From a virus, in the IMG/VR virus record IMGVR_UViG_3300024312_000003, positions 116,491-180,490 of that record: a DNA stretch of 64,000 bases, one strand, 5' to 3'. Shown piece by piece: positions 708 to 39,706 of the stretch. Made by a program: the position numbers and the translations under genes. The stretch's first letter is position 1, and the number at the start of each line of letters is the position of its first letter. The notes under the pieces were generated by a model that was not told the DNA's origin, did not search any database, and worked only from the letters and a program-made list of their open reading frames with translations.

Positions 708-869
708 TGGACTTTCCTTATGTCGGTGGACACGAAATAATAAACAACATATAGAGGAGGGAGATTTCTCTCCCTCCTCGCATTCCTGCTCTTTCCTCAA
801 TCAAAGAATTTAACTGTCTTTTTCAAATCCATTACAGATTTGATACTCATCAATTAAATCGGCAGGAAT

Positions 870-1208
870 ATCAGATTCAATAGGTTCGGATCATTATCAC
901 CTACTTGTTATTAAACCTGATAACTAGGTTTTGCTCAAGCGGCCAGGCGCTGAGCAAACGTGCTGTCGTTTGCGGCAGTTAAATTGAGATTTGTATGTTT
1001 CGATTGATTTCTCAATCTCTAACGGAGTTCTCATACTTACTCCGAGTAGTAATCTCCACTAGCTCACCCTGTCGAAACCAGATCTGGCCCACCTAAACAA
1101 ACACAATATTGAATCTGCTTAGGTGGACCAGGTGGGAATCGAACCCACGTCCAGAATGCATTTGCTTTGATTTTCAGTTTCGGTATTTCTACCTCTACAC
1201 ACTACCAT
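870..1208 (-). ncRNA. ssrA: Circularly permuted (two-piece) tmRNA gene: acceptor piece ~1208-1121, intervening hairpin, coding piece 1090-~870
   Basis: T-arm GTGGG-TTCGATT-CCCAC plus CTGGTCC-A-CC lies upstream of the 5' end GGGCCAGATCTGGTTTCGAC. The acceptor stem pairs 7/7 including G3:U70. Tag ORF, P5 hairpin and pk2-like pseudoknot (907-931) follow. The 870 boundary is approximate. Confidence 0.92.
935..973 (-). other. tmRNA tag reading frame (A)ANDSTFAQRLAA*
   Basis: GCA AAC GAC AGC ACG TTT GCT CAG CGC CTG GCC GCT TGA, preceded by TTAACTGCC resume context. Confidence 0.9.
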
Positions 1209-1742
1209 TTATACTTCAGTCCAAGTTCTGCCATTTCTAATATCAGAAACAGTTGATTTGGATATGTTGTATTTATCAACATAGTAACTGTATGGTTCTT
1301 TTCCGTATTTGATGTTACTAACCTGCTCTATTGTCAAATGCGAATTATTTCTAACATTAATACCTTTAGCAGATCGACCTTTATTTACCATATCATCCAT
1401 ATTGTCTTGATGAGTGCCTGCAAATAAATGATCAGGAGCAACACATTTACGATTATCACAATGATGACAAATCATAATACTGGGGTCAAGAATCTGACCA
1501 CCAATAAATAATTGAAAAGCCCATCTATGAGCGCGTATTTTAGACTGTTCCTCTCTAGATCCAACTGATATCTGACCGTATCCATCTTGATTGAGTTTAC
1601 CTGTCCACTCTATACAATCATTATTTGGATTAAGTTGAAGTTTGTCTATAAAACGTTTTAAGACTTTTTCATCAAATACGATATCTGGATCTAGAGAATT
1701 TGACATGATGCGTCCAAGAATTATTGTACGGAATTGTGCCAC
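1209..1742 (-). CDS. Free-standing HNH homing endonuclease (HNH_3-like); probable start 1706
   Basis: CIEWTG..N.DGYG.I, RAHR, CHHCDNRKCV.PDHL..GT..DN..DM motifs. Confidence 0.9.
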   Translation of the reverse strand: MAQFRTIILGRIMSNSLDPDIVFDEKVLKRFIDKLQLNPNNDCIEWTGKLNQDGYGQISVGSREEQSKIRAHRWAFQLFIGGQILDPSIMICHHCDNRKCVAPDHLFAGTHQDNMDDMVNKGRSAKGINVRNNSHLTIEQVSNIKYGKEPYSYYVDKYNISKSTVSDIRNGRTWTEV

Positions 1743-1905
1743 CCCCGTACGGGAGGCGCAAGGAGATCGAGGGTTTCTAACTCAATCATCGGCGCCCGCT
1801 AAAGAGTCCTTTCGAGACTCTACCTACCACGACTTTACGACCAACTGCAACATCGACGTAAACTTGTTGATTTCTCTCTACAACAAGTAGTGATGTTGTA
1901 ATTTA

Positions 1906-15058: not shown

Positions 15059-15091
15059 TGGTGCCGGTTGACAGTCTCGAACTGCCGACCT
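15059..15091 (-). pseudogene. 3' piece of a split tRNA (variable loop, T-arm, acceptor strand, CCA)
   Basis: AGGTC-GGCAG-TTCGAGA-CTGTC-AACCGGC-A-CCA. Confidence 0.85.
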
Positions 15092-15662
15092 ATTCAATAA
15101 TTATTGGTTTCACCCAATAACCCCTTGGCGGTTTTTCTATTGAATATATTTTACACCATTTTTCAATTGTCTTATCGGAAACACCATAATCCTTAGAAAT
15201 ATGGGTAGTGGGTTTCGACCAGACTAACTTCTCAAGAGTCTCTTTAGAAGGTCTATCTTTAACTATCCGTGCTCCAATTTTTGAACAGTTTGCTGAGCAA
15301 TATTTAAATTCAGGATAAATAGGGTATTCGCAAACGATACACCGTATACACCCCAATTTAATTCTTTCAGAAAATTCTTTGTTTGGTTCAAAAGAATATT
15401 TATTCATCCAACCATGCAGTTTAGCATGCATTGGATTTGAAAGAATCAACAAATTGTCAGGAGAATTATTTTGTCTATTTTGATCCAGATGATGAACTAC
15501 TTCTCCTTCTAGAAGCGATCTTCCCATCAGATTCTCAGCAACAACAATATGTTCGTAAACATATCCTTCGTAAGATCCCGAAGCTATAGCTCTCGGATGA
15601 TATGGCATCTTGACCAAAACATATCCGTTGGTATCAATTGTTCGTCTAAAAAGTTTGTACAT
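15090..15662 (-). CDS. HNH homing endonuclease
   Basis: NGYV, YEHIVVAE..MGR.L...EVVHH.DQNR.NN.PDNL, CxxC...CSxxC; ATG at 15662 (the track start at 15701 lies inside tRNA-Tyr). Confidence 0.9.
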   Translation of the reverse strand: MYKLFRRTIDTNGYVLVKMPYHPRAIASGSYEGYVYEHIVVAENLMGRSLLEGEVVHHLDQNRQNNSPDNLLILSNPMHAKLHGWMNKYSFEPNKEFSERIKLGCIRCIVCEYPIYPEFKYCSANCSKIGARIVKDRPSKETLEKLVWSKPTTHISKDYGVSDKTIEKWCKIYSIEKPPRGYWVKPIIIE

Positions 15663-15675
15663 GATTTTGATTGGA

Positions 15676-15750
15676 TGGTGCCCTGTCTGTGAATCGAACA
15701 CAGATCGCCGCCTTACAAGGGCGGTGCTAAGACCTTCCAGCTAACAGGGC
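15676..15750 (-). tRNA. tRNA-Tyr(GTA), short variable loop, nested inside the split tRNA
   Basis: GCCCTGT/ACAGGGC acceptor, CCGCC-CTTGTAA-GGCGG, CGAT variable loop, CTGTG-TTCGATT-CACAG, A-CCA. Confidence 0.85.
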
Positions 15751-38418: not shown

Positions 38419-38755
38419 TGTTGAGTTCAATATGGTTCGTTAATCCATACCCGCACCATGACGTGCAGCTGCATGTTTCCATGCATGACCAGACTATATC
38501 ATCTTTCCTATTTGGAAAGCTTTCTGTTTCGAACCACTTGGTTCTACTCTACTTACTTCCAGCGTTTGCTGTGTTTTCGATAGTCGTTGAACGTGCCTCC
38601 AATCATTGGAGGATTCGCTGCTGGTTGTCCAATCCATCTCGTTTTCAAACCATGGCTTTGCTTTGCAGCTCGCAGTGGTGAAATGGCTCTAAGGAGTTTC
38701 TAGCAATTAAGAAAGTTTTCTAATGAGATTACTCTCAAAAGGCGCTCAGTAATTA
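38419..38755 (-). mobile_element. Group I intron in thyA (337 nt, no homing endonuclease)
   Basis: P AATTGCTAGAAAC, Q AACCAGCAGC, R GTTCAACGACTA, S GATATAGTCTG; P1 with U:G after CAGCGT; splits YQR|SADV. Confidence 0.92.
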
Positions 38756-39706
38756 ACGCTGATACAGAAGGCATGAAAGTCTACCACTAGGAATTCCAAT
38801 TTCCTTAGCAATCTTAGCAGCGATTTTGAAACCACTCTCTCCAGATTCTACAGCTTGAGTAATTTCGATTATTCGAGACTCATGACCAGCAGTAATGATA
38901 TCTGCGGTGATTTCTTCCAAAGGAATTGGTTCCACGTCAAACTGGAACAAGCAATGACATGCTGCCAAAGCCATTTTACCTTGAATAACATTATCTTGAG
39001 GACTAATGGTTTCGTCAGGCAGATCGGCAGGATTCCAGGCAGTAACAATGATGCGTCTAGAATAAGGACGATTCTTAATCGTATCAATTGCTTCTTGAAG
39101 CTGATCGATAACTAGACCTGATGGAGTTTTCCAATTGCGCCATTGTGCACCATATACTGGACCGAGATCACCGGATTTAGCAATCGTATATTCAACAAAT
39201 GGATTAACACCACCGTCAAGTAGAAACTTCATGGTTCCTTTAGTAAAACCATTCTTAAGTCCATCTTGCATGTATTCGTTTACTTTGGTACGAATAACAT
39301 CTAGTGGTTCTCCGATATTGTAAATACCAGATTCGATATCTGCTTTTTTCAGATAACCAATTACCTGTTCCTCATGCAGATTATGAGCTTTAGAATATTC
39401 TGAGATCAATTCATTAAAAGGACGAATTCTTTTAATGACAGCGTCTTCTTTAAGAGCCCAGCTGTCCCAGATGTGTACGTCTTTTTCAAGAAGATAATTG
39501 ATGTTGGTATCACCTTTGATGAACCAAATCAGCTCTTCAATGATTCCTCTGGTAAATACCTTCTTAGTCGTCAAAAGAGGAAAACCTTCTCGGAGATTAA
39601 AACGCATCATTGCACCAAAAATAGCAATCGTTCCAGTGTTGGTTCGATCGTCTCTCTCAGTGCCGTTTTCCAAAATATTCTTAACAAGATCTGTGTATTG
39701 TTTCAT
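38756..39706 (-). CDS. thyA: Thymidylate synthase exon 1 with large insertions
   Basis: DRT.TGT, GFPLLTTKK, EL.WF..G.TN, LGPVYG.QWR, ACH, YQR. Confidence 0.95.

Follow-up and report, generated by a model that had tools for sequence, protein, structure and literature searches.

An apparently intact two-piece tmRNA gene of the betaproteobacterial permuted type in an uncultured phiKZ-related jumbo phage

We report here a phage-borne tmRNA gene that is very probably an intact two-piece gene of the betaproteobacterial permuted type, carried in a dispersed tRNA region of an uncultured phiKZ-related jumbo phage. The DNA analysed, referred to as the window, is a stretch of 64 kb that forms the end of a 180,490-bp IMG/VR record, and we determined the identity, type, anatomy, genomic context and relatives of its tmRNA gene. 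ARAGORN places a permuted tmRNA (tmRNA*), with the tag AANDSTFAQRLAA*, at 844-1213 of the minus strand; it finds no other tmRNA in the window and returns the same permuted call from the whole 180,490-bp record. Two Rfam models are also above their cut-offs. RF04321 (tmRNA_permuted) scores 76.3 bits over 935-1193 (model positions 1-213; cut-off 47 bits) and RF01850 (beta_tmRNA) scores 91.4 bits over 1060-1159 (cut-off 84 bits). A sequence-only reading of this DNA had proposed that a large phage carries a circularly permuted tmRNA gene, and had suggested that detectors for permuted genes be run; ARAGORN and the two models confirm the proposal. On the same stretch the alphaproteobacterial permuted model RF01849 and the cyanobacterial permuted model RF01851 reach 32.9 and 42.5 bits, below their cut-offs of 50 and 70 bits. 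A search pattern made of T-arm/ACC, a gap of 20-50 nt and UGGUUUCGAC has a single match in the window and none in 100 shuffles.

The RF01850 alignment covers only model positions 75-172 of 331, and the gene is therefore filed as beta-type in its tRNA-like domain and junction only. Model positions 1-74 (the 5' leader) and 173-331 (the post-tag hairpins and the terminal hairpin) stay unaligned, so that the full-length RF01850 architecture is not found. Other members of the type, from viral contigs, cultured phages and bacteria, cover the model from position 1 to 331. In BLAST comparisons with about 100 viral and bacterial beta-type genes, the 5' leader of the window tmRNA and everything past P2 have no detectable similarity. 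The part that aligns crosses the permuted junction itself, from ACC through the spacer hairpin to GGG, and the junction is thus homologous to that of the betaproteobacterial lineage. The gene does not have a one-piece or intron-bearing form: the order is reversed and the T-loop is unbroken. A conventional 5' tmRNA end upstream of the neighbouring HNH gene would have turned the locus into a one-piece gene, but neither such an end nor a tmRNA remnant is found there, and the order stays permuted.

The order of the modules can be read directly from the sequence. On the minus strand the 3' module, with the T-arm and CUGGUCC-A-CC, precedes the 5' module, as had been noticed at the outset. The acceptor piece is put at 1122-1206 (minus strand), with a provisional 5' end, by the Rfam alignments, ARAGORN and the sequence, and contains the 5' strands of P2, the T-arm, the 3' acceptor strand, the discriminator and CC. 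The T-arm occupies 1148-1132 (GUGGG 1148-1144, loop UUCGAUU 1143-1137, CCCAC 1136-1132) and is followed by the 3' acceptor strand CUGGUCC (1131-1125), the discriminator A1124 and CC (1123-1122). Since the next nucleotide is U1121, the terminal A of CCA is not encoded. The coding piece, assigned to 845-1090 (minus strand) from ARAGORN, Rfam, the sequence and the precursor fold, begins with the 5' acceptor strand GGGCCAG (1090-1084) and the D-loop analogue AUCUGGUUUCGA (1083-1072). Its 3' end is provisional: ARAGORN puts it at 844, and a terminator-like hairpin stands at 779-754. The two acceptor strands pair 7/7 with a G3:U70 pair, exactly as described before, and together with the discriminator A the alanine identity set is complete. 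T-arm and D-loop analogue are intact, and both GUGGG-UUCGAUU-CCCAC and AUCUGGUUUCGA fit the Rfam consensus with high posterior probability.

The P2-type pairings that had been suggested to link the two pieces are present. Inner P2 joins CAUUCUG (1158-1152) to CAGGGUG (1071-1065), and the Rfam alignment flags no non-standard pair in it. In outer P2, UACUACU (1051-1045) pairs 7/7 with GGUAGUG (1206-1200); the choice of the latter strand is ambiguous, because Rfam aligns GGUAG (1193-1189) instead. Against the beta consensus (GGGggUG / CAccUCC), the acceptor stem of the window gene (GGGCCAG / CUGGUCC) differs in both partners of pairs 4-6, and one T-stem pair and one P2 pair are likewise altered in both partners. 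As far as can be judged from sequence, these two-sided changes argue that pairing in the tRNA-like domain and in P2 is still kept under selection.

Between the pieces lies a segment of 31 nt (1091-1121, minus strand) that holds no ORF and is delimited by the sequence, an inverted repeat, the precursor fold and the alignment to the consensus spacer of beta_tmRNA. It had been estimated at about 30 nt and seen as a prolongation of the stem. This description holds: ACCUAAGCAGA (1124-1114) pairs with UUUGUUUAGGU (1101-1091) in a hairpin of 11 pairs, two of them G:U, and in the minimum-free-energy fold of the precursor the acceptor stem and the spacer form one continuous long helix. Maturation is predicted to remove the segment. 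The loop of the spacer (1117-1107) also matches the tail of the coding piece (882-872) in an uninterrupted complementarity of 11 nt. This complementarity was found post hoc and was reached by 0 of 300 spacer shuffles; as a family feature it was rejected, the relatives having no comparable pairing at a consistent place. It could have a role in the folding of the precursor, or it could be due to chance.

Further structure is seen in the mRNA-like part of the coding piece. A hairpin at the PK1 position (CGGAGU 1044-1039 / ACUCCG 1028-1023) carries the loop GUAUG, for which CAUAC (997-993) is a possible partner, and two more hairpins follow the tag at 930-914 and 905-879. The pseudoknots of the window tmRNA are candidates only. 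The tag ORF noted earlier was recovered by ARAGORN at 935-976 (minus strand), and the Rfam tmRNA_permuted alignment stops at its stop codon. The frame runs from 976 to 935 with the codons GCC GCA AAC GAC AGC ACG UUU GCU CAG CGC CUG GCC GCU UGA and encodes AANDSTFAQRLAA*. Because two alanine codons stand before AAC, the resume codon is either GCC at 976 or GCA at 973, and resumption at the latter would give the tag ANDSTFAQRLAA. The tag has a GCN resume codon, starts with AND and ends with LAA directly before the stop; the LAA end matches the ClpXP degron. Judged by these elements, the gene looks intact. Phage-borne beta-type tags are often longer, and 7 of their 22 distinct tags end in R-(L/I)-A-A, an ending found at 0 bacterial loci. 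The loci with this ending are L005, L007, L016, L020, L022, L026-L029, L159 and L160, and they include Pseudomonas phage SM1 and Stenotrophomonas phage Marzo.

The carrier is a large phage related to phiKZ. CheckV rates the record as about 65% complete, which at 180,490 bp points to a genome considerably larger than 200 kb. Among its genes are those for tail fibres, an internal head protein, NrdA, a helicase and a thymidylate synthase; phiKZ-type virion genes are present, and carrier proteins match PHROGs 3245, 3289 and 3248 strongly. For the PHROG 3248 protein, Burkholderia phage FLC9 has a counterpart with 49% identity, Ralstonia phages RP12, RP31 and FLC4-3B have counterparts with 44-45%, and other cultured jumbo phages, including the phiKZ-related Pseudomonas phage PhiPA3, reach 37-39%. 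The AAA ATPase adjoining the tmRNA locus also matches phiKZ-group phages. The nearest cultured relatives FLC9, FLC4-3B and RP12 have no tmRNA of either form. This indicates that the window gene was acquired within its own phage line and is not a group trait, and that a tmRNA is dispensable for the phiKZ-related group. A group I intron (RF00028, 94.1 bits) lies at 38469-38765 (minus strand) of the window, directly after the ORF at 38753-39706 (minus strand) that matches thymidylate synthase (PHROG 160); intron and ORF look like a td-type intron-split thyA.

The tmRNA gene is located 117 kb into the 180-kb record and is flanked by phage genes at either end. It lies among nine tRNA genes of the same orientation, which ARAGORN finds over 37 kb of the record. 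Its G+C content is 41.6% (50% in the tRNA-like domain and about 40% in the rest), compared with 38.5% for the phage and a median of 58% for bacterial beta-type genes. A value so near to that of the phage fits long residence in A+T-rich phage genomes, not a recent capture. Genes for SmpB or a CCA-adding enzyme were not found in the 180-kb record, which at about 65% completeness lacks a third of the genome; on this record the function of the tmRNA would depend wholly on the host. Blastn of window positions 800-1300 against cultured phages gave no match, nor did IMG/VR scans with two flanking proteins and one virion protein, and metagenome scans, both exact-pattern and alignment-based, returned no close relative of the window tmRNA. 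The ORF at 1906-2385 has homologues in Logan assemblies with 83% and 73% identity.

The 5' edge of the tmRNA gene adjoins a free-standing HNH endonuclease gene of 177 aa (Pfam HNH_3; 1209-1742, minus strand), which neighbours the RNA without belonging to it. Both genes point the same way, and the HNH stop codon (1211-1209) lies 2 nt before the first possible P2 strand (GGUAGUG, 1206). Homologues are present in about 1400 phage records, where they are annotated as HNH homing endonucleases, and the alignments reach residue 177. No paralogue is found in the record, and the second HNH gene of the window (15090-15701) is unrelated. We read this arrangement as the insertion of a mobile HNH gene at the 5' edge of the tmRNA gene; transcription of the tmRNA would now depend on read-through or on a promoter within the HNH gene. 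A scan for sigma-70 promoters of the window tmRNA gave nothing above shuffled expectation, and the HNH gene fills the upstream space; in the viral contig L009 a strong TTGACA-17-TATACT promoter stands directly upstream of P2. Prompted by a tRNA-Thr case in the same genome, we also considered that the HNH gene split an older tmRNA, or that an HNH-tmRNA cassette sits inside one. Both ideas were rejected, as no tmRNA remnant is found on the far side of either gene; between the tail and the upstream regions of the locus there is no significant pairing. Adjacency to an HNH gene is not a general feature either, since 0 of the 10 ORFs tested (within about 350 nt upstream of other viral beta-type tmRNAs) encode an HNH protein.

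The ORF at 1906-2385, the HNH gene and the tmRNA are bracketed by hairpin elements at 2404-2443 and 754-779. The latter is a terminator-like hairpin of 11 bp (minus strand; 7 G:C) followed by UAUAUGUUGUUUAUUAUUU, recognised as a case of a recurring hairpin element, and probably closes the transcription unit. The combination of a G+C-rich hairpin and a following TATGTTGTT(T/C)A is repeated at gene ends on both strands (window 741-779, minus, and 2404-2443, plus; genome 110786, 112999 and 115166) and is probably a phage terminator and/or promoter signal. Its TATG presumably recalls phiKZ late promoters. The 13-nt inverted repeats at 741-753 and 2431-2443 were considered as the ends of a mobile block and rejected, because further copies of the hairpin and TATGTTGTT element are present in the genome, on either strand, and there is no sign that the block of ORF 1906-2385, HNH gene and tmRNA is a cassette. 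A G+C-rich stretch of 120 nt between ORF 1906-2385 and the HNH start (1743-1860, minus strand) forms local hairpins; its structure is not significant (z = -1.55), and Rfam gives no match to it.

Relatives of the window tmRNA were found in several settings. A pattern scan of IMG/VR returned 28 contigs with a beta-type tmRNA, and ARAGORN makes a permuted call in 27 of them. They include contigs of 146, 170, 184 and 317 kb, two have terminal repeats, and a phiKZ-type virion protein is encoded in none of them. Several of these copies adjoin phage genes (SAM lyase, PD-(D/E)XK nuclease, dNMP kinase). Among cultured phages, XacN1, SM1, DLP_6 and Marzo, whose hosts are gammaproteobacteria, carry beta-type permuted tmRNAs above the RF01850 cut-off. 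The tRNA-like domains nearest to that of the window are viral, with 75-78% identity for L009 and about 71% for L007 and L022. In a maximum-likelihood tree of the tRNA-like domain, which with 112 columns is only indicative, window and L009 are joined with a support of 100/93. They belong to a group of 20 rows that holds 11 viral copies together with copies from Cupriavidus, Gallionellaceae and Alcaligenaceae and that is separate from the Rhodocyclales group. Genomes of Variovorax (G007/L083), Cupriavidus necator (G008/L105) and Gallionellaceae (G009/L056) have a standard one-piece tmRNA (186-226 bits) and in addition a permuted beta-type copy, which suggests that the extra copies came via mobile elements. 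In the order containing Azonexus, a beta-type gene above cut-off is present in only 4 of 151 sampled genomes. One genome of the search set, G036, is unpublished, and none of the conclusions here relies on it. The carriers among gammaproteobacterial phages and the genomes with two tmRNAs indicate that the beta-type RNA travels on mobile DNA, and hence its presence does not show that a host uses a two-piece tmRNA.

By its sequence, the window tmRNA is a descendant of the beta-type permuted lineage. It had been left open whether the permutation arose independently within the phage, from a one-piece tmRNA, or whether the gene was captured from a permuted host. An mRNA-like domain unlike that of the beta-type relatives would suit an independent event. 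However, the junction (ACC, spacer hairpin, GGG) aligns to beta_tmRNA, the score of 91.4 bits stands against 32.9 for the alpha and 42.5 for the cyanobacterial model, and in the tree of the tRNA-like domain the window gene nests among beta-type permuted genes; an independent permutation is thus unsupported and highly improbable. Of the capture idea, the descent from a permuted lineage stands, but the gene does not look like a fresh capture from the current host, since the nearest tRNA-like domains are viral, its G+C content is 41.6% against the bacterial median of 58%, and phages of Xanthomonas, Stenotrophomonas and Pseudomonas also carry the beta type. It is highly improbable that the locus is host DNA, whether left behind at a prophage attachment site, picked up recently from the current host or joined to the phage in a chimeric assembly. 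Integration at tmRNA genes is common, and among the IMG/VR matches there are some that look like host flanks (e.g. L004 and L021: 298 bits, 58% G+C, Rhodocyclales tag ANDERFALAA). The window gene, in contrast, lies deep in the record between phage genes and is phage-like in G+C, and none of the bacterial copies found resembles it in tag or mRNA-like domain.

It is also conceivable, if improbable, that mainly the tRNA-like domain works, as a decoy for SmpB and AlaRS that damps host trans-translation, or that the gene is a decaying relic; in either case the mRNA-like part would be no tag template. A phage RNA that consists of the tRNA-like domain (TLD) only, as in DS6A, has been described together with an inhibitory effect on tmRNA (PMC4131195, PMC11915505). 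In the window gene, alignment to the family model is confined to the tRNA-like domain and the spacer, the rest is unlike any of about 100 beta-type tmRNAs, and the record has no phage smpB. Yet the tag frame is canonical throughout: it lies at the usual distance from P2, opens with a GCN resume codon, encodes AND...LAA and closes with a stop. This would be unexpected under drift, and we rate the decoy or relic low for this reason. The hairpin at the PK1 position and the structured hairpins after the tag likewise speak for a complete RNA, and other phage copies keep full tag frames. Our preferred reading therefore remains an intact two-piece gene of the beta type.

Two-piece tmRNAs, including the beta type and some on jumbo genomes, are already present in published phages, and the window is an ordinary new example. 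The premise of the sequence-only reading that phage tmRNAs are one-piece is out of date: a 2022 study (PMC9004378) has 53 two-piece forms among 133 unique phage tmRNAs. The same study describes the two-piece tmRNA of phage Melnitz, places its ssrA with the alphaproteobacterial lineage and lists in Table S1 permuted forms in 215-322 kb Caulobacter phages, cyanophages, pelagiphages, Stenotrophomonas phages and others. tmRNAs and SmpB are known from huge phages (PMC7162821), and the two-piece betaproteobacterial tmRNA is attributed to Sharkady and Williams 2004, here as cited in PMC9004378. Marine T4-like phages (OM43 phage Melnitz, pelagimyophages), cyanophages and phiCbK-group Caulobacter phages encode a permuted tmRNA as the window phage does; several of these genomes are jumbo, and the role proposed for the RNA, keeping translation going, is the same (PMC9004378). 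Melnitz pairs its tmRNA with a glutamine riboswitch, whereas none was found at the window locus. The mycobacteriophage Bxz1 group and Bacillus phage G (one-piece) and DS6A (TLD-only) resemble the window phage in relying on host SmpB for a phage ssrA (PMC4131195). The first two have the standard order and DS6A has the tRNA-like domain only, while the window gene is permuted and has a tag frame.

Closest in type are the four cultured phages XacN1 (AP018399.1, 384,670 bp), SM1, DLP_6 and Marzo, one of them jumbo. Their tmRNAs have the permuted order of the window gene, score 94.6-111.2 bits with RF01850 (window 91.4) and are also found with RF04321. They adjoin phage tRNA genes as the window gene does, and that of Marzo is annotated as tmRNA. 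Their tags are of the form AN(D)...(A/L/I)AA, and that of SM1 ends in RLAA like the window tag. There are, however, clear differences. Identity to the window is 84-87% over only about 31-35 nt of the tRNA-like domain, and all four align to the whole beta model and not only to positions 75-172. Spacers exceed 100 nt in XacN1 and SM1, compared with 31 nt in the window, and CCA is encoded in XacN1, DLP_6 and Marzo, where the window encodes ACC-U. Nothing in record taxonomy or name marks XacN1, SM1 and DLP_6 as phiKZ-like, and Marzo is a Menderavirus. The bacterial two-piece tmRNAs of Rhodocyclales (Azonexus, Dechloromonas, Thauera; RF01850) share with the window the arrangement of tRNA-like domain, spacer hairpin and P2, and their tags, like the window tag, begin with AND and end with AA. 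Bacterial beta genes reach 170-314 bits over all 331 positions, of which the window shares the central 98 only. They have about 58% G+C and tags of 10 residues (ANDE[QR]FA[ILV]AA), in contrast to 41.6% and 12-13 residues ending in RLAA in the window.

By analogy with established two-piece tmRNA processing, summarised in PMC11915505, we infer that processing, alanylation and tagging by the window tmRNA depend on the host. A single precursor, which probably also includes the upstream ORF and the HNH gene, would be transcribed from the interval bounded by the elements at 2404-2443 and 754-779, and its acceptor stem would be prolonged by the 31-nt spacer hairpin. Host RNase P would cut 5' of G1090, host 3' trimming would take off U1121 onward, and the host CCA-adding enzyme would supply the terminal A. 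The acceptor and coding pieces would then be held together by the acceptor and P2 helices, and host AlaRS could charge the RNA via G3:U70 and A73. Brought to stalled ribosomes by host SmpB, the RNA would let translation resume on the tag frame, adding (A)ANDSTFAQRLAA. The behaviour of the E. coli ssrA tag is a further basis for these steps. A likely benefit would be that ribosomes are kept free while host and phage mRNAs are cut during infection.

The window phage is one more large phage that brings its own ribosome-rescue RNA. As far as checked, it is the first such phage in the phiKZ-related group with cultured relatives on Burkholderia and Ralstonia. Since the betaproteobacterial permuted form occurs widely on phages and other mobile DNA, it cannot by itself imply a host with a two-piece tmRNA. 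More speculatively, and with considerable doubt on our side, the beta-type two-piece tmRNAs might be a lineage that circulates among unrelated phages whatever the form of the host tmRNA, with an own longer R-(L/I)-A-A tag as a phage-specified degron and the window phage as a very divergent member. If so, such a degron could shift the handling of rescued proteins by proteases and adaptors, and the phage tag lineage could counter defences that cleave mRNA or stall ribosomes.

Two observations on the relatives may be added. The GenBank records of XacN1 (L157; AP018399.1, at about 37.2 kb), DLP_6 and SM1 (L158, L160) carry no feature at the position of the tmRNA. In the related viral contigs L005 (672-1059) and L017 (11745-12132), two tRNA genes with a CUA anticodon, called Pyl by ARAGORN and resembling amber suppressors, stand beside the permuted tmRNA, and they may point to stop-codon recoding.
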